Virus genome (UHGV): UHGV-2204638 | Origin: a virus | Strand: one strand, 5' to 3' | DNA length: 36,601 nucleotides | Shown here: positions 1,958 to 19,156 of the stretch, piece by piece | How the letters are laid out: each line of letters starts with the position of its first letter | Numbering within the stretch: position 1 is the stretch's first letter | The notes under the pieces: generated by a model | Told to the model about the DNA's origin: nothing | The model's database searches: none | Seen by the model: the letters and a program-made list of their open reading frames with translations, nothing else | Made by a program: the position numbers and the translations under genes

Positions 1958-2530
1958 TCATAATTCTGTGCTGGTGGCAGGAATTAGTTTCTGCCAGATA
2001 GCGGAAACATATTTTGCCTGATGACGGGCATCAGCCAGGGCGTTGTGCCGTTCGCCATCGAAAGGCATGTCCATTTTTGGGTCGAATCCGATGGAACGCC
2101 CAAGCGTAATGATCGTGCGTACATCGTGGTCATTCCAGTACGCCCACGGGCAGATTTGTCCTGCTCGCTCGTAAGCTCCACGTAAAATTACGTTGTCGAA
2201 GGTGGCCCCGTTACCCCAGACTTTTAAATATTTTGTATTGTCTGCATGCTGATTAATGAAATGGCTCAGTTCAGAGAGTGCATCGCTGATCGACAAAGTA
2301 TCATCAATACAGATTGCAGCTCGTGCTTCAGAGCTCTGTTTCAACCACCACAGGATGGTATCGCCGTCAGGTGTAGCTCCTTGCTCCATAGCACTTTCCA
2401 GGCTAACAACCGTATAGAATTCTTGTTCGATGTCTCCGGTTTCTGGAGTGAAGAACACCGCGCCAATGGAAACGATCGGTGCATCCTTATTTTTCCCCAT
2501 CGTCTCAAGGTCGATCATTAAGTTATTCAT
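1958..2530 (-). CDS. DEDD-type 3'-5' exonuclease
   Basis: 190 aa; the MIDLETMG N-terminal motif and later acidic and H-x-A-x-x-D motifs fit DnaQ-like exonuclease motifs I-III. Confidence 0.6.
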   Translation of the reverse strand: MNNLMIDLETMGKNKDAPIVSIGAVFFTPETGDIEQEFYTVVSLESAMEQGATPDGDTILWWLKQSSEARAAICIDDTLSISDALSELSHFINQHADNTKYLKVWGNGATFDNVILRGAYERAGQICPWAYWNDHDVRTIITLGRSIGFDPKMDMPFDGERHNALADARHQAKYVSAIWQKLIPATSTEL

Positions 2531-3231
2531 TACTTCACCTCCTGCGGCGGTTCCGGTAGCGGCATCCAGTGAGTTGCTTGCTCAATACCATTACCCGGCT
2601 TAATCGTTGCATCTCCGCGCCGAAAGGTGCTTCCGGTATAGCGTGCGGAGCATATTAGCGGTTCAACCAGAGAGCTATCGAAATTCACTGAAATAAGCAC
2701 GTTCTGATTCTTTTCCGGCATTCGATCACTACAGCTTATCCAACCATCCGGAGTTACCGGAGAGTTGCCACCGTGAATATTTTCCGGAATATTTTGTTGT
2801 GCGTTTTGTGGTTGTTCGGATTTACCCTGAAGCATAGCGGCACGGCAGGCGTTCCAGCCTCTCACCTCTGCAATAGCGGCAAAAGCATCAACCGCGTACA
2901 TGCTAAGAGGATTAGGCATTGGTTTTTCTTCCGGTACTACTGGCACTGGAGGGGCGGCATAAAACTTCGTCCCCAGCGGCAACAACTTCATCGCTTTTTC
3001 TCCCTTAATGATGCGATAAGTTGATTTCCCGCCAAGGTCTACCGTTCCATCCATAACAAGGCCGAGTCGCTTCTCTGAAACCTCACCAATAGGCTCTGCT
3101 TCCAGCGATGCCAGAGCAATTCGTGCCAGTTCTTCCGCTTCTTCTGCTGGCAGTACAACGTTGCTACCAGGTCCGTATGTTTCGCGCCACTGCTTGATTG
3201 TCAGCAGTCGCTCTTTGGTAATAGTGATCAT
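2530..3231 (-). CDS. Phage protein with DUF551-like C-terminus
   Basis: 233 aa; start overlaps the stop of the downstream gene; C-terminal HWMPLPEPP motif. Confidence 0.5.
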   Translation of the reverse strand: MITITKERLLTIKQWRETYGPGSNVVLPAEEAEELARIALASLEAEPIGEVSEKRLGLVMDGTVDLGGKSTYRIIKGEKAMKLLPLGTKFYAAPPVPVVPEEKPMPNPLSMYAVDAFAAIAEVRGWNACRAAMLQGKSEQPQNAQQNIPENIHGGNSPVTPDGWISCSDRMPEKNQNVLISVNFDSSLVEPLICSARYTGSTFRRGDATIKPGNGIEQATHWMPLPEPPQEVK

Positions 3232-13847: not shown

Positions 13848-14843
13848 GTGACCGTGAGAGCACTACTGACCCCTGAAATAGCCCCGCGTATGGGGATTGT
13901 ATTGTTCAGACCAGGTTCAGAGCTGATGCCCCTGTTTATGCAGGGGCGTGTCCTGCTGGAGCCTGAGCCGGAACGTTATTCATCTTTCGCCAGTGGTGCC
14001 GTTCCGGCGGCATCACAACCGCTGGCGGATGATCCTGCCGTTAGGGCCGTGTTCCGCAATGAGGCAGTGATCCGTCGTGCTGGTGGCGTGGAATGTCTTG
14101 AAAGCTGGTTACTTCGTGAAAAAGGCTGCCAGTGGCCTCATTCCGACTGGCACAGCGAGAACATGACCACAATGCGACACGCGCCGGGCGCGATCCGTCT
14201 GTGCTGGCACTGCGATAACCAGCTGCGCGATCAGTTCACGGAACGGCTGGAATCAATGGCAACGGATAACTGTGCCCGCTGGGTGTTGTCTGTAGTCCGT
14301 CTGGATCTCGGTTTTGATGATAACCATGCCGTGACAATGCCGGAACTGTGCTGGTGGCTGATTCGTAATGACCTGGCGGATGCCTTACCGGAAAGTGCAG
14401 CCCGTAAGGCACTGAGATTACCGAAGCCTGTTGTGCCGTCTGTCACCCGGGAAAGTGACCTTGTGCCTTCGGTTCCTGCCACCAGCATCATCCAGGATAA
14501 GGCGAAAAAGGTGCTGGCGCTGAAAGTGGATCCGGAGTCGCCGGAGTCTTTTATGTTACGCCCAAAACGTCGCCGCTGGGTTAATGAAAAGTACACGCGC
14601 TGGGTTAAGACACAGCCGTGTGCATGTTGTGGAAAGCCTGCTGATGATCCCCACCACCTGATAGGCCACGGTCAGGGGGGAATGGGTACAAAAGCGCATG
14701 ACCTCTTTGTGTTGCCTTTGTGCAGAAAGCATCACGACGAGCTGCATGCGGATACCGTGGCATTTGAAGAGAAGTATGGCTCCCAGCTGGAGCTGATATT
14801 TCGTTTTATCGATCGTGCGCTGGCAATAGGCGTGCTGGCCTGA
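13848..14843 (+). CDS. DUF968-like prophage protein with C-terminal Cys/His cluster
   Basis: CACCG...HHLIGHG...H...C..HH..H cluster resembles the DUF968 family found in nin regions (from memory). Confidence 0.5.
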   Translation: MTVRALLTPEIAPRMGIVLFRPGSELMPLFMQGRVLLEPEPERYSSFASGAVPAASQPLADDPAVRAVFRNEAVIRRAGGVECLESWLLREKGCQWPHSDWHSENMTTMRHAPGAIRLCWHCDNQLRDQFTERLESMATDNCARWVLSVVRLDLGFDDNHAVTMPELCWWLIRNDLADALPESAARKALRLPKPVVPSVTRESDLVPSVPATSIIQDKAKKVLALKVDPESPESFMLRPKRRRWVNEKYTRWVKTQPCACCGKPADDPHHLIGHGQGGMGTKAHDLFVLPLCRKHHDELHADTVAFEEKYGSQLELIFRFIDRALAIGVLA

Positions 14844-14860
14844 TTTTGTGGAGAAAGTTG

Positions 14861-15232
14861 ATGCGTGATATTCAAATGGTTCTTGAACGTTGGGGGGCAT
14901 GGGTGGCAAATAATCACGAGGATGTGGAATGGTCATCTGTTGCTGCAGGTTTTAAGGGATTAATTCCTTCGAAAGTAAAATCCCGCCCGCAATGTAGCGA
15001 TGACGATGGCCTGATCATTAGCTCTGCGATGACAGTTCTTAAGAAAAAGGAACCGTATCAATACGAATTACTGGAAATGTATTATGTGTATGGGGTTACA
15101 TTACGGGCGTTGGGGGTAAAACTGGGGATATCACTTAATCAGGTTGTTATCAGACTGCAGAAAGCTGAAGGGTTTATTGACGGTTGTCTGGCAATGTTGG
15201 GGGTATCTTTAGAAATTGATTGTTACATATAG
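14861..15232 (+). CDS. Q: Late-gene antiterminator Q (QuuD-type)
   Basis: MRDIQMVLERWGAW..NNHEDV.WSS.AAGFKGL..SKVKSRPQC is near-identical to the DLP12 QuuD N-terminus as recalled. ATG at 14861; the track ORF begins at a TTG at 14846. Confidence 0.8.
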   Translation: MRDIQMVLERWGAWVANNHEDVEWSSVAAGFKGLIPSKVKSRPQCSDDDGLIISSAMTVLKKKEPYQYELLEMYYVYGVTLRALGVKLGISLNQVVIRLQKAEGFIDGCLAMLGVSLEIDCYI

Positions 15233-15307
15233 TAATAAATTCAATCAAAGTAAATAATCATATTTTATTATAACCTCCTGATGATACCTGTTCATTGGGA
15301 GGTTATT

Positions 15308-15925
15308 ATGGATAAAAATGTAGAGCATGTATTAGTTGATGCAATCGAAAATAAGCAATCTTTAACAGTCGTTTACTTAGGAGGGAGCCAGCCCGGAACA
15401 TTAAGGAATATTTCTCCGATTAGTATAAATGGGGATAAATTGCGGGCAAGATGCCATAGTTCTGGAGCAGTAAAGGTTTTCAATCTTGGGAAAATACAGT
15501 TACCCAGTGACTCCTGCGCGGTATCTATGCACTATGGAGATTTAGAAGTTAAAGCTTATGAGACGATGCAGAGCGTAAATGACAACTTTCATGCCCTTTA
15601 TCCTGAAGGACGATGGGGTGTTGATTTTAATGAGCATCGCTTTGCTTTATTTGATTTTTTTAAAAACGGGAAACGAAAAAAAACGGCATTTATGGCAATT
15701 GAGTTCAGGGAAAGAGATGAAGAGAAAATAATAACAGGTGTAACAATTGATATTGGTATATCTGGAACAGTGATTTCTGAGAAGTCCCGAATCCCAAAAA
15801 GACGACCATGGGTAGTGGTTGGTCCCGAACACGGAGAATACAGTACTTATTCAACTTTGGACAAGGCTGCTACAGCGTTTTTTGAGAGGCTTTCGTTGAT
15901 AGCATCCGGCCTGGAAGATAATTGA
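15308..15925 (+). CDS. Unknown cargo (moron) protein, 205 aa, on an AT-rich island
   Basis: GGGAGG RBS 5 nt before the ATG at 15308; about 35% GC against ~52% in flanking phage genes; its own terminator lies downstream. The N-terminal region has a WYL/SH3-like beta-rich pattern; this is speculative. Confidence 0.6.
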   Translation: MDKNVEHVLVDAIENKQSLTVVYLGGSQPGTLRNISPISINGDKLRARCHSSGAVKVFNLGKIQLPSDSCAVSMHYGDLEVKAYETMQSVNDNFHALYPEGRWGVDFNEHRFALFDFFKNGKRKKTAFMAIEFRERDEEKIITGVTIDIGISGTVISEKSRIPKRRPWVVVGPEHGEYSTYSTLDKAATAFFERLSLIASGLEDN

Positions 15926-16054
15926 TTTTATGTTTGGTATTCAGAGTTCGCCGTGCTTAAGAAAGTCAAGATTCTAAAAATACTGAATGAGCTACTTGTG
16001 TTATAACAAAAATGCTATTAGTGTGTTAAGAGTGGTTACTTCGCCACACAACTT

Positions 16055-16080
16055 AAACCCGCCACTGAGCGGGTTTTTTG
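16055..16080 (+). terminator. Rho-independent terminator
   Basis: aaacccgc-cactga-gcgggtttttt. Confidence 0.6.
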
Positions 16081-16177
16081 TACCTGTAAACTTGGTGCAG
16101 TACAGTAAACACGCTGGTGGTCGTGAATACTGACTTTTTATCTTGCTGGATTTTTAGACAAGAGTTATTGGTATGTC

Positions 16178-16405
16178 ATGTTAACCAGAAGGGAAAAAGA
16201 CATGCTAAAACAGCAAGATATGACAGAAACCGCCGCCGCAGTCCTTCATTTCTTACCTGCTGACAAGTGGGTAACGCCACGCATGATGACGAGAACTACC
16301 GGAGTAAGCGAAGCCCGGTGCCAGTTAATACTGACTCAGTTAGTTCTGGCGGGTCTGGCGAAGGATAACGGCGGGTACGGGAATAAATTCAGACGCTGCC
16401 AGTAA
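16178..16405 (+). CDS. Small hypothetical protein, possible wHTH
   Basis: 75-aa ORF upstream of the methyltransferase. Confidence 0.35.
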   Translation: MLTRREKDMLKQQDMTETAAAVLHFLPADKWVTPRMMTRTTGVSEARCQLILTQLVLAGLAKDNGGYGNKFRRCQ

Positions 16406-16555: not shown

Positions 16556-17608
16556 ATGAAAAATACTGTAAAAATAAACAGTGTTGATTTAATCAACGCT
16601 GATTGCCTGCATTTTATTCAGTCCCTGCCTGATGATTCCATTGACCTGATTGTTACCGATCCGCCTTACTTCAAGGTGAAACCTAACGGTTGGGACAATC
16701 AGTGGAAAGGGGATGAAGATTACCTTAAGTGGCTGGACCACTGTCTGGCCCAGTTCTGGCGGGTGTTGAAACCTGCCGGAAGCCTTTACCTGTTCTGTGG
16801 GCATCGCCTAGCATCTGATATTGAGATCATGATGCGTGAACGTTTCAACGTGCTTAACCATATCATCTGGGCGAAGCCGTCCGGACGTTGGAATGGGTGT
16901 AATAAAGAAAGTCTGCGCGCATATTTTCCTGCCACAGAGCGCGTTCTGTTTGCTGAACATTACCAGGGGCCATATCGCGGCAAAAGTGACGGCTATGCGG
17001 CAAAAGAAAGGGAACTCAAACAGCACATAATGGCACCGCTGATATCGTATTTCAGGGATGCTCGTGCCGAACTGGGTATAACGGCAAAACAAATTGCCGA
17101 AGCCACAGGTAAGAAAAATATGGTTTCCCACTGGTTTGGTGCCAGTCAGTGGCAGTTGCCGAATGAGGCTGACTATCGGAAGTTACAGGCACTGTTTTCC
17201 CGTATAGCGGCAGAGAAGTTTCAGGAACAACAACTGGAACAACCACACCACCAGCTGGTGGCATCTTATGATTCACTGAATCGCAAATATTCTGAATTGC
17301 TGGATGAGTTTAAATCTCTCCGGCGCTATTTCTCCGTATCAGTCTCCGTGCCTTATACCGATGTCTGGACGCATAAGCCCGTTCAGTTCTACCCGGGTAA
17401 ACATCCGTGCGAGAAACCGACGGATATGCTCCGGCAAATAATCAATGCCAGTAGTCGACCTGGTGATCTGGTTGCTGATTTCTTTATGGGATCCGGTTCC
17501 ACAATAAAAGCAGCAATGGCGCTGGGGCGTCGGGCGTTAGGTGTTGAACTTGAGTCAGAGCGGTTTAATCAGACGGTGAAAGAGGTAAGTGAACTGGTGG
17601 GGAAATAA
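16556..17608 (+). CDS. DNA methyltransferase, N4/N6 class (orphan)
   Basis: IVTDPPY motif after an N-terminal segment; 350 aa; no adjacent nuclease. Confidence 0.8.
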   Translation: MKNTVKINSVDLINADCLHFIQSLPDDSIDLIVTDPPYFKVKPNGWDNQWKGDEDYLKWLDHCLAQFWRVLKPAGSLYLFCGHRLASDIEIMMRERFNVLNHIIWAKPSGRWNGCNKESLRAYFPATERVLFAEHYQGPYRGKSDGYAAKERELKQHIMAPLISYFRDARAELGITAKQIAEATGKKNMVSHWFGASQWQLPNEADYRKLQALFSRIAAEKFQEQQLEQPHHQLVASYDSLNRKYSELLDEFKSLRRYFSVSVSVPYTDVWTHKPVQFYPGKHPCEKPTDMLRQIINASSRPGDLVADFFMGSGSTIKAAMALGRRALGVELESERFNQTVKEVSELVGK

Positions 17609-17684
17609 TTCTGGTGGCCACGTTGCGTGGCCTTTTTATTTCCAACACAGCACCCGCAAATATCGCGAGGTGAGAGATGACGAA

Positions 17685-18020
17685 ATGCCTCATAACCCAA
17701 ATACCTGGCCGGACTGGCTGGAGTTGTTTCAGAGCTGGTGGCGTGGAGACACACCGCTGGGTGCAGTGATTATGTCGATCGTTATGGCTGGTTTGCGCAT
17801 CGCCTATTTTGGCGGTGGTGGTGGCTGGAAGCGAAAAACGCTCGAGATTTTGCTCTGTGGCGCTCTGACGCTGACCTTTGCATCCGCTCTTGAATATGTC
17901 GGATGGCCTAAATCGCTTTCTGTTGCCATTGGTGGTGGCGTGGGGCTGATCGGTGTCGATGCTATTCGTGGGGCTGCAATGCGAGTAATCGGTAACAAAT
18001 TTGGTAGCTCGAAGGAGTAA
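17685..18020 (+). CDS. Holin (lambda S-like class)
   Basis: 111 aa with hydrophobic segments and a charged C-terminus, directly upstream of the endolysin. ATG at 17685 with a GAGG RBS; the track ORF from 17589 overlaps the methyltransferase. Confidence 0.65.
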   Translation: MPHNPNTWPDWLELFQSWWRGDTPLGAVIMSIVMAGLRIAYFGGGGGWKRKTLEILLCGALTLTFASALEYVGWPKSLSVAIGGGVGLIGVDAIRGAAMRVIGNKFGSSKE

Positions 18021-18023
18021 TTT

Positions 18024-18500
18024 ATGCAGGCACTAAATTCCCAGCGTAAAGCTTTCCTGGATATGGTGGCATGGTCAGAAGGAACGGATAACGGGCGACA
18101 ACCGACACGTAACCACGGTTATGATGTTATTGTTGGTGGCGAACTGTTCACTGATTACTCCGATCACCCTCGCAAACTTGTCACGCTAAACCCCAAACTC
18201 AAATCAACAGCCGCCGGACGTTACCAGCTTCTTTCACGCTGGTGGGATGCTTACCGTAAACAGCTTGGCCTGAAAGATTTTTCTCCAGAAAGCCAGGACG
18301 CTGTAGCTCTGCAGCAGATTAAAGAGCGTGGTGCTTTACCGATGATTGACCGCGGCAGTATTCGTCAGGCAATCGACCGTTGCAGCAATATCTGGGCGTC
18401 GTTACCTGGTGCAGGTTACGGTCAGTATGAACATAAAATCGGTGACCTGATTGCCCGATTTAAAAAAGCTGGTGGGGTAGTAAATGAAGCTGAGATATAA
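18024..18500 (+). CDS. R: Endolysin, lambda R-type lytic transglycosylase
   Basis: Near-identical over most of its length to lambda R as recalled (QRKAFLDM.AWSEGTDNGRQ.TRNHGYDVIVGGELFTDYSDHPRKLVTLNPKLKST.AGRYQLLSRWWDAYRKQLGLKDFSP). Confidence 0.9.
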   Translation: MQALNSQRKAFLDMVAWSEGTDNGRQPTRNHGYDVIVGGELFTDYSDHPRKLVTLNPKLKSTAAGRYQLLSRWWDAYRKQLGLKDFSPESQDAVALQQIKERGALPMIDRGSIRQAIDRCSNIWASLPGAGYGQYEHKIGDLIARFKKAGGVVNEAEI

Positions 18501-18852
18501 GCTGGTTATTGTTGCCTTCGTTGTTACCGTCATTGGTTCCTTCATCTGGTCTGCCGGGCATTACTACAGCAAATATCAGCACGAAAAGGAGCGTGCTGAT
18601 GAGGCTGTACGAAATGCTGAATCAGCAACTGCCATTACCCGTAACGTTCTGCAATCACTGCAAATCGTCAATACAGTTCTGGAGGCTAACCAGCATGCAA
18701 AACAGCAGATCGCACTGGAGTCACAGAGATTCGAAGTATCGAGATGCGCCGTAACGCTTTGCTGGCAGCAGTCAAATAGTCCGGATAAAGAACAGGAATA
18801 TATTTATGCCCCCTCGAACTCCAAAAGCCTGCCGCGTTCGCGGCTGCCGTAA
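18484..18852 (+). CDS. Rz-like i-spanin, possibly altered at the 3' end
   Basis: N-terminal transmembrane segment then charged helix, in the position after the endolysin. No embedded lipoprotein o-spanin ORF was found in either alternate frame; the 3' end overlaps the HNH gene. Confidence 0.45.
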   Translation: MKLRYKLVIVAFVVTVIGSFIWSAGHYYSKYQHEKERADEAVRNAESATAITRNVLQSLQIVNTVLEANQHAKQQIALESQRFEVSRCAVTLCWQQSNSPDKEQEYIYAPSNSKSLPRSRLP

Positions 18853-19156
18853 TACCACGACAGACCCGTCAGGCTACTGCGAAAGCCACAAAAGCGAAGG
18901 CTGGAAGCAATACAAGCCAGGACAATCCCGTCATCAGCGCGGTTATGGTTCGAAGTGGGATGTTATCCGCGTGCGTGTGTTGAAGCGTGACAAAGGACTG
19001 TGCCAGTTGTGCCTGCGTGCCGGTGTGGTGCGTGAAGCGAAAACCGTTGATCACATCATCCCTAAAGCGCATGGCGGCTCTGATGCCGACAGTAATCTGC
19101 AGAGCCTGTGCTGGCCGTGTCATAAGGCGAAGACGGCCCGTGAACGGTTGAAGTGA
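18806..19156 (+). CDS. HNH endonuclease (terminase-associated)
   Basis: CxxC...DHIIPKAHGGSDADSNLQSLCWPCH matches the HNH motif; sits immediately upstream of the small terminase subunit as in HK97-like phages. Confidence 0.8.
   Translation: MPPRTPKACRVRGCRNTTTDPSGYCESHKSEGWKQYKPGQSRHQRGYGSKWDVIRVRVLKRDKGLCQLCLRAGVVREAKTVDHIIPKAHGGSDADSNLQSLCWPCHKAKTARERLK

Follow-up and report, generated by a model that had tools for sequence, protein, structure and literature searches.

A predicted WYL-domain protein without a helix-turn-helix, encoded beside the antiterminator gene Q in virus genome UHGV-2204638

So far, WYL domains are known chiefly as the part of transcription factors that senses a ligand, as in DriD, PafBC, CapW and BrxR, or as Cas accessories. 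In the virus genome UHGV-2204638, analysed as one stretch of 36,601 nucleotides (nt) that is called the window throughout, a gene on the plus strand at 15308..15925 (the WYL gene) encodes a 205-amino-acid (aa) protein of another build. In this protein, what appears to be the same pocket for single-stranded DNA (ssDNA) is joined to an unknown 120-residue domain instead of a helix-turn-helix (HTH) and a WCX domain. According to the best overall explanation, to which a probability of about 0.5 was assigned, the protein would be a non-enzymatic sensor of single-stranded nucleic acid that takes part in phage conflict. The family has already been catalogued (in PHROG and under a PGAP name) and has never been studied; what is new is the combination of a WYL sensor domain with a novel output domain.

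The closest described proteins are the regulators composed of a winged HTH (wHTH), a WYL domain and WCX, namely DriD of Caulobacter crescentus and also PafBC, CapW and BrxR. The window protein shares the motif Y-x-GGS-x-PG-x-x-R-E-[IV]-x-P, which includes the phosphate contacts Tyr168, Ser172 and Arg178 of DriD, and judged by this motif it probably binds single-stranded nucleic acid as well. Unlike these regulators, the window protein has neither an N-terminal HTH nor a WCX, it has K-[LV]-R-A-R-C in place of the W-Y-L tripeptide, and its C-terminal domain is unrelated. Due to the missing HTH and WCX and the unrelated C-terminal domain, it cannot work like DriD as a transcription factor that binds promoters.

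The likeness to rexAB of lambda is one of position only, as the homologues in L064, L076 and L134 are located directly downstream of a CI-like gene and co-oriented with it. In contrast to rexAB, with which there is no relation in sequence or fold, the window gene adjoins Q and not CI and encodes a single soluble protein, not a two-component sensor and channel. Fusions of CARF, SAVED and STING sensors with transmembrane effectors are comparable in that a ligand-binding sensor is combined with transmembrane helices in the relatives P0090, P0127, P0143 and P0144. However, the window protein itself lacks a transmembrane segment, and no signal-generating partner gene is conserved beside the gene. 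The same insertion site as that of the WYL gene is used by the cargo found between Q and the late promoter pR' in phages of the 933W/QuuD type, e.g. nmpC of DLP12 and orf53/54 of cdtI. Whereas nmpC and orf53/54 lie on the opposite strand as independent units, the WYL gene runs in the direction of Q, with which it has co-diverged, and no promoter was detected for it.

The two domains of the protein and its family

The preliminary description of the locus, prepared from the letters of the DNA, had reported the 205-aa open reading frame (ORF) at 15308..15925 with a GGGAGG ribosome-binding site (RBS), and both were found at these positions: the RBS occupies 15297..15302 and is separated from the ATG by 5 nt. 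The ORF is the sole one of a low-GC island. Against an allele with 71% aa identity, the ratio of non-synonymous to synonymous substitution rates (dN/dS) was determined as 0.22, which marks the ORF as a real coding gene. The corresponding values for the WYL domain, the C-terminal domain and the linker were 0.13, 0.23, and 0.79, respectively. The window protein lacks transmembrane segments (Kyte-Doolittle mean over 19 residues at most 1.03), and the product of 15308..15925 is a soluble two-domain protein under purifying selection.

Codons 1-66 (15308..15505, plus strand) encode the WYL domain, in which a helix precedes a five-stranded Sm/SH3-like beta-barrel. The invariant or near-invariant residues of this part are Y23, G25, G26, S27, P29, G30, R33, P37, A47, C49, K56, F58, and K62. 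With the window protein alone, the PF13280 match was sub-threshold (16.5 bits compared with the cut-off of 21.8, E 0.0085), while 49 of 81 relatives were matched with a best E of 4.8e-08. The WYL models of PADLOC matched the window protein with E 1.4e-3. Among the sequences of the PDB, the family profile matched the WYL domain of DriD (E 1e-4) through the shared motif; in the HMM alignment, iiYhGGSqpGavReIaP of the family is placed against FRYEGGSTPGRTREVTP of DriD. An identical protein is called 'WYL domain-containing protein' by PGAP in some genomes. The guess of the preliminary description that the N-terminal segment resembles a WYL/SH3-like barrel turned out to be correct, in view of the PF13280 matches, the similarity to DriD and the conserved pocket residues. 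Its statement that the protein matches no family did not hold, since the protein belongs to phrog_8498 (E 2.9e-126) and carries the PGAP name mentioned above.

In DriD, the phosphates of ssDNA are contacted by Tyr168, Ser172 and Arg178, and Arg204 and Trp206 on beta5 stack on the bases (PMC9186387). Y23, S27 and R33 of the window protein align with the three phosphate-contacting residues, being conserved at 100%, 91%, and 100%, respectively. K56 (100%) and F58 (95%) are located on beta5, where DriD has Arg204/Trp206, the equivalence being one of position only. Beta4 reads K-L-R-A-R-C in the window protein and K-V-R-A-R-C in the family consensus, i.e. the Trp-Tyr-Leu tripeptide is missing. As the tripeptide is degenerate also in accepted members (NYL in DriD; PMC9186387), its loss leaves membership among WYL domains possible. 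Taken over all of this evidence, the anatomy of the protein and its WYL identity are hardly in doubt. That the ligand of the pocket is a single-stranded nucleic acid is suggested by the aligned residues with slightly better than even odds.

The WYL domain is followed by a variable linker (codons 67-85, 15506..15562, plus strand) in which the predicted local distance difference test (pLDDT) was below 50 for residues 69-81. The family-specific C-terminal alpha/beta domain (codons 86-205 and the stop codon, 15563..15925, plus strand) consists of a helix, an antiparallel sheet and a long helix. Its conserved positions are G/W103, K119-N-G121, K125, R166-P-W168, A187, and F191. When residues 86-205 were modelled alone, the model was confident, with a pLDDT of 86.6 and a predicted template modelling score (pTM) of 0.75. 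The search of the C-terminal domain against BFVD gave nothing at E ≤0.001, and no Pfam or NCBIfam match was obtained. HTH families were matched neither by the window protein nor by the 81 relatives, the WYL helix beginning already at residue 3, and the WCX fold, which serves for dimerisation, was not found. Nowhere in the protein does an Asp, Glu or His reach a conservation of 75%. The absence of conserved acidic or His residues indicates that the protein is most probably a binder and not an enzyme.

The function of phrog_8498 is given as unknown in PHROG. The HMM search resulted in 954 clusters (at 50% identity) with E ≤1e-3, of which 191 had E ≤1e-30. Nearly all the clusters are 187-210 aa long (about 195 aa) and cover both domains. 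Most members originate from metagenomes and from marine or aquatic Proteobacteria and Bacteroidota, and a relative was detected also in a 209-kb cyanophage. Apart from a few automatic labels, the members have no precomputed Pfam domain or functional name; three relatives are labelled in IMG as 'predicted DNA-binding transcriptional regulator YafY'. In the literature searched, WP_000360285 is mentioned by no paper, and a phage WYL protein lacking an HTH was nowhere found described.

Some relatives are extended. N-terminal transmembrane helices occur in P0127, P0143 and P0144, zinc ribbons together with C-terminal transmembrane helices in P0090, and an unannotated extension of about 160 aa in P0068, L075 (6485..7576), PY3_2 and phrog_31886. 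Beyond these anchors, zinc ribbons with transmembrane helices and the unannotated extension, no additional domains were detected in the longer relatives. The ORF of L129 at 2006..3115 is likewise among the variants with extra parts (transmembrane helices, zinc ribbons or an extension of the phrog_31886 type).

The gene between Q and the probable late promoter

The antiterminator gene Q is located at 14858..15232 on the plus strand (PF06530, E 4.6e-48) and belongs to the short 933W/DLP12-QuuD type. Its product is 124 aa from the ATG, an alternative TTG start being present at 14846, and shares 56-65% aa identity with Q of Stx2a/933W-type phages, 434B/DLP12 and PhiR40_1. In a 933W-type Stx2 phage, whose Q is 56% identical, the sequence TTTACG-17 nt-TATCAT begins exactly at the Q stop and is followed by GATAAGAGTGGTTACATTGCCACGCAG and then by AACCCGCCGATGCGCGGG-T7. 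The order is the classical one, in which Q is followed by pR', a short transcribed region and the terminator tR'. While the Q stop abuts the -35 of pR' directly in the 933W-type phage, 763 bp of 37.9% GC intervene in the window (15233..15995, plus strand), which corresponds to a moron both in insertion and in composition.

The position of pR' in the window was assigned by positional homology to the 933W-type Stx2 phage, PhiR40_1, mEp460_4F5 and cdtI; the strict consensus promoter scan did not call it. The inferred pR' occupies 15996..16024 (plus strand), with the -35 TTGTGT at 15996..16001, a 17-nt spacer containing the palindrome TGTTATAACA, and the -10 TAGTGT at 16019..16024. The element is conserved in the lineage of the second allele. 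It is followed by a 30-nt initially transcribed block, GTTAAGAGTGGTTACTTCGCCACACAACTT (16025..16054, plus strand), which is specific to phages of the short-Q type. The block is shared by five short-Q phages, including PhiR40_1, mEp460_4F5, 569R4 and cdtI, where it stands directly before the terminator, and it is present also in the 933W-type phage. In the long-Q phages SfV and Ayreon, the block is missing and the shared sequence starts only from the terminator stem.

The terminator at 16055..16080 (plus strand), which was not listed by the consensus scanner, is formed by an 8-bp hairpin, AAACCCGC-CACTGA-GCGGGTTT, followed by a T-run (-13.8 kcal/mol). SfV and Ayreon, both of which lack the WYL gene, conserve it as well, and it carries a terminator annotation there. 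Since the hairpin and the preceding 30 nt occur in phages without the gene, the terminator is the tR' of the phage backbone and not of the island. The possibility of a terminator owned by the island was rejected, the hairpin and the downstream DNA being 96-100% identical in gene-less phages. The preliminary description had seen a real terminator here; its attribution to the island was incorrect. From the comparison of these phages, it is very likely that the island 15233..15995 was inserted between Q and Q's own promoter.

With this map, the analogy to Stx phages drawn in the preliminary description fails, because stx is located downstream of pR'-tR' and the WYL gene, ending at 15925, lies upstream of both. 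The earlier placement between Q and the lysis cassette, in the sense of Stx phages, was inaccurate too, as the gene stands between the Q stop and pR', and a 75-aa ORF and a methyltransferase gene precede the holin. The local order of Q, island, pR', conserved transcribed block and tR' is fixed by these results, which corrects the expectation of a stx-like expression of the cargo.

The GC content of the island, 37.9%, is the minimum of the window, the mean of which is 52.1% (sd 5.2). Among 717 sliding windows of 763 nt, 7 had a GC content of ≤38.5%, all of them at the island. Across the region the GC content drops from 0.52-0.59 to 0.34-0.40. The low-GC block described earlier is therefore real, but the value of roughly 35% given for it applies only to the local minimum of 0.34 at 15200..15499. 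No flanking direct repeats that might represent insertion scars were found around the island. By megablast, none of 50,697 deposited phage records covered the ORF, the island being absent from them at the nucleotide level, whereas many of the records were 96-100% identical to the window from 16007-16056 onward.

The preliminary description had proposed to check the variability of the island among related prophages, and the site proved to be variable: phages of the same Q type carry other cargo, on the opposite strand, or none. Examples of the other cargo are a 148-aa unannotated ORF in PhiR40_1, two ORFs (orf53/54) in cdtI, and nmpC in DLP12/434B. A promoter and a terminator of its own were not found for the WYL gene, as no plus-strand promoter-like site was detected and the only terminator is the backbone tR'. 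The gene is hence a moron by position and composition but not by possession of its own transcription signals.

The island was found in 51 of 5426 complete E. coli genomes (about 1%), and near-identical intact copies of the gene were present in 41 IMG/VR contigs. At the same site, a second allele with 71% aa identity stands behind a Q that has diverged along with it; one copy is that of the Stx2 prophage L058. The dS values between the two lineages were determined to be 0.80 for Q and 0.85 for the WYL gene, compared with 0.27 for the upstream DUF968/HNH gene (13848..14843). The equal dS of Q and the WYL gene, in contrast to the value of DUF968, indicates that the two form an old linked module and are not the result of a recent insertion. 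The jump in dS from 0.27 to 0.80/0.85 at 14843..14858 implies a recombination joint just upstream of Q. In L058 (8642..9882), the order is Q, WYL gene, 77-aa ORF, methyltransferase, stx2A and stx2B, the stx2AB genes being situated far downstream, after the methyltransferase.

The 98-nt leader RNA was predicted to fold with -23.4 kcal/mol (z -2.95), and none of 200 shuffled sequences was equally stable. The Shine-Dalgarno sequence (SD) at 15297..15302 and the AUG at 15308..15310 are sequestered in a hairpin at 15264..15312 (plus strand), which was also scored as an inverted repeat. Its inner stem comprises 15 bp (15270..15284/15292..15306) and the outer stem pairs 15264..15268 with 15308..15312. 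The strong RBS reported earlier is thus present as the GGGAGG sequence, but it is base-paired, together with the AUG, by the hairpin with the 15-bp stem. The hairpin is kept in the 71%-identical allele with one-sided changes only; no two-sided compensatory changes were observed, leaving it without support from covariation. As a family-wide feature the SD hairpin was rejected, as it occurs in both E. coli alleles and was not seen upstream of distant homologues. The Rfam search gave no known RNA family for the leader or the hairpin.

In the promoter scan of the region upstream of the ORF (15233..15307, plus strand), no sigma-70 site passed, and the consensus scan found no terminator between Q and the WYL ORF. 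The best promoter candidate found by hand, TTCAAT-17-TTTTAT, was rejected: it is weak, and its spacing is lost in the other allele through an 11-nt indel. This indel within the 75-nt leader removes any -35/-10 spacing common to the alleles. A weak or non-sigma-70 promoter may precede the ORF. Most parsimoniously, we infer, transcription reads through from Q into the WYL gene, which would then close the early-right operon. The earlier suggestion that the gene is well placed for expression in lysogens finds no support at this locus, in view of its location upstream of pR', the absence of a promoter-like site before the ORF and the sequestered SD.

On the opposite strand, a good sigma-70-like site, TGAACA-16-TATAAT (10/12 matches), was observed at 15294..15267 (minus strand), inside the RBS hairpin and reading antisense into Q from its 3' end; the second allele has a weaker version. 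The site resembles the anti-Q promoter of lambda.

Proposed role and rival explanations

The genomic contexts of the relatives make a role in phage conflict plausible. In L064, L076, L134 and L063, the homologue follows a CI-like repressor gene directly, with an 8-nt gap, and is divergent from a Cro/YdaS gene; the position directly downstream of the CI gene is that of rexAB in lambda. In L115 the homologue is part of an operon extending from CI to integrase, in Pseudoalteromonas phage PY3 and L075 it is situated between the integrase and a LexA-like repressor, in L081 it adjoins an S24 repressor, and in L138 it is near an integrase and a probable repressor. In L065 and L069 it stands between structural or terminase genes and Rha, and in L133 at the end of a satellite-like island that encodes a capsid. 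In the chromosomal island L007, the homologue comes immediately after genes of NsnB-like, PDC-S15, and PD-T4-2 A and B type. The homologue of L137 is located after an AAA_13 ATPase and a Mrr_cat-nSTAND3 gene, and that of L136 beside IS elements and a Metallophos/AAA_27 pair. A conserved partner gene was not found, the neighbours being different in every independent context inspected, which suggests that the gene acts alone or with host factors.

In the proposed mechanism, the WYL pocket would bind single-stranded nucleic acid, probably ssDNA arising from phage replication or DNA damage, and the binding would alter how the C-terminal domain oligomerises or binds partners. The protein would act stoichiometrically in conflict between phages or between phage and host, most probably by excluding or aborting other phages. 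At the window locus, the gene would be transcribed by read-through from Q, its translation would be throttled by the SD hairpin, and unmodified transcripts would end at tR'. A role in defence or exclusion against other phages, considered alone and as far as it can be read from sequence, falls a little short of even odds. It is favoured because relatives occupy CI-linked, lysogen-expressed positions and defence islands, and variants exist in which the sensor is provided with a membrane anchor. Moreover, the occluded RBS fits a product that is harmful in excess.

Several results weigh against a nucleic acid sensor with a role in conflict. The ligand is deduced from three aligned residues and two positional equivalences, and RNA is the ligand of some WYL domains. 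The C-terminal domain cannot be assigned any effector activity, and the geometry between the domains is uncertain, as the full-length model had a pTM of 0.50. PADLOC-DB v2 contained no model of a described defence system that matched the protein, only weak generic matches to Cas-associated WYL accessories being obtained (E 1.4e-3 and 6.6e-3). The contexts are about 20 independent ones, inspected with no statistical background, and those of L131, L132, L009 and L010 were uninformative. Finally, the lack of a recognisable promoter and the location at the end of an early lytic operon fit a role in the lytic cycle or in anti-defence at least as well as a defence expressed in lysogens.

A protein made early with Q could indeed serve in anti-defence, its pocket soaking up an ssDNA or nucleotide signal or acting as a decoy for immunity regulated by WYL proteins of BrxR or CapW type, and would thereby blunt the host defences in lytic growth. 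The location of the gene at the distal end of the early-right operon without its own promoter agrees with such a role, as does the small size of the non-enzymatic protein with its binder-type conservation. Host WYL repressors are reported to switch on defence upon sensing ssDNA (PMC11662680). The WYL gene has also changed faster in dN than Q at equal dS (0.186 and 0.076, respectively). On the other hand, anti-defence genes are not usually met in chromosomal defence islands or at CI-linked, lysogen-expressed positions, where relatives are located, and a soluble sponge would hardly be expected to have membrane-anchored variants. Homologues were found in only 2 of 50,697 deposited phage genomes, and no similarity to known sponges was obtained in the BFVD and PDB searches. 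Anti-defence is considered rather unlikely. A function within the phage itself, i.e. an ssDNA sensor that reports replication or damage to CI, Q, recombination or RecA by protein contact, is unlikely as well. It would agree with the fact that in most phage contexts the gene adjoins a master regulator, which is Q in the window, with equal dS, and a CI-like or LexA-like repressor elsewhere. Furthermore, DriD and PafBC, the nearest WYL proteins of solved structure, are DNA-damage regulators that are activated by ssDNA and contact RNA polymerase. However, members of the family occur also in non-phage chromosomal islands beside defence genes and in the 209-kb cyanophage, no partner gene is conserved, and related phages of the same Q type manage without the gene. 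The similarity to PsiB and frataxin was at noise level, without support in sequence. The more specific proposal of an ssDNA-sensing checkpoint, wired to the phage master switches in that it touches Q, CI or RNA polymerase directly, is quite improbable. It would explain why the gene is sited beside Q, with which it co-diverges, or, in many unrelated temperate phages, beside CI/LexA-like repressors, and if true, it would represent a new class of WYL signalling, from sensor to protein partner and not from sensor to promoter.

The two remaining explanations are decided by the architecture and the selection described above. A conventional WYL transcription factor of YafY, BrxR or CapW type could be expected from the three relatives named YafY in IMG and from the WYL domain common to the YafY family. 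The window protein, however, starts directly with the WYL helix and barrel, its 205 aa leave no room for a wHTH, no HTH was found in the 81 relatives, and there is no WCX fold. Due to the missing HTH and WCX, this explanation is effectively refuted. The gene might also be a functionless hitch-hiker or the decaying remnant of an acquired AT-rich fragment, as frameshifted or truncated copies exist (P0003, P0006, P0241) and the RBS is occluded. In contrast, the dN/dS of 0.22 was maintained over a dS of 0.85, at least 954 clusters have preserved the full-length architecture, and the 41 copies in IMG/VR contigs are near-identical and intact. Purifying selection excludes a dead gene, and a remnant of any kind is very improbable.

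If the gene protects lysogens or manipulates immunity, it would represent a compact one-gene system without enzymatic activity, and WYL sensing would gain a new mode of output. Because the second allele adjoins the Q-pR' switch for toxin and lysis in an Stx2 prophage, any effect of it on induction or late transcription would be of practical interest. The gene is a good and cheap candidate for a defence/anti-defence screen and for WYL biochemistry.

Neighbouring genes and minor observations

Each of the short-Q phages has a distinct palindrome about 15 nt upstream of the -10 of pR', whereas the transcribed block and tR' are constant. The palindromes are TGTTATAACA in the window, TTTACAATCGTAAA in PhiR40_1, TTTACGATCGTAAA in the 933W type, GCGTACGC in mEp460_4F5, and ACCGCGGT in cdtI (at 19 nt). 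They are candidate allele-specific elements for the binding of Q. Overlapping tR' and the conserved DNA after it, a sub-threshold Rfam match to the enterobacterial small RNA STnc130 was recorded at 16047..16183 on the minus strand (31.6 bits compared with the gathering score of 55, E 0.023).

The first gene after tR' is the 75-aa wHTH-like ORF at 16178..16405 (phrog_331, with weak MarR/TrmB matches), which is followed by an orphan N6/N4 DNA methyltransferase at 16556..17608 (PF01555; PADLOC MTase_II, E 2.5e-152) and then by the holin and lysozyme genes. As the 75-aa ORF and the methyltransferase intervene before the holin, the WYL gene is not directly beside the lysis cassette. This pair, located upstream of the holin in the late operon, is kept in SfV, mEp460, cdtI and Stx2c phages.

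The holin ORF (17589..18020) overlaps the 3' end of the methyltransferase by 20 nt, and its Pfam match begins at residue 35; the true start of the holin is probably further downstream than the listed GTG. After the Rz region, a 116-aa ORF at 18806..19156 contains an HNH-type motif (...CWPCHKAKT...) and overlaps the end of the ORF at 18484..18852.

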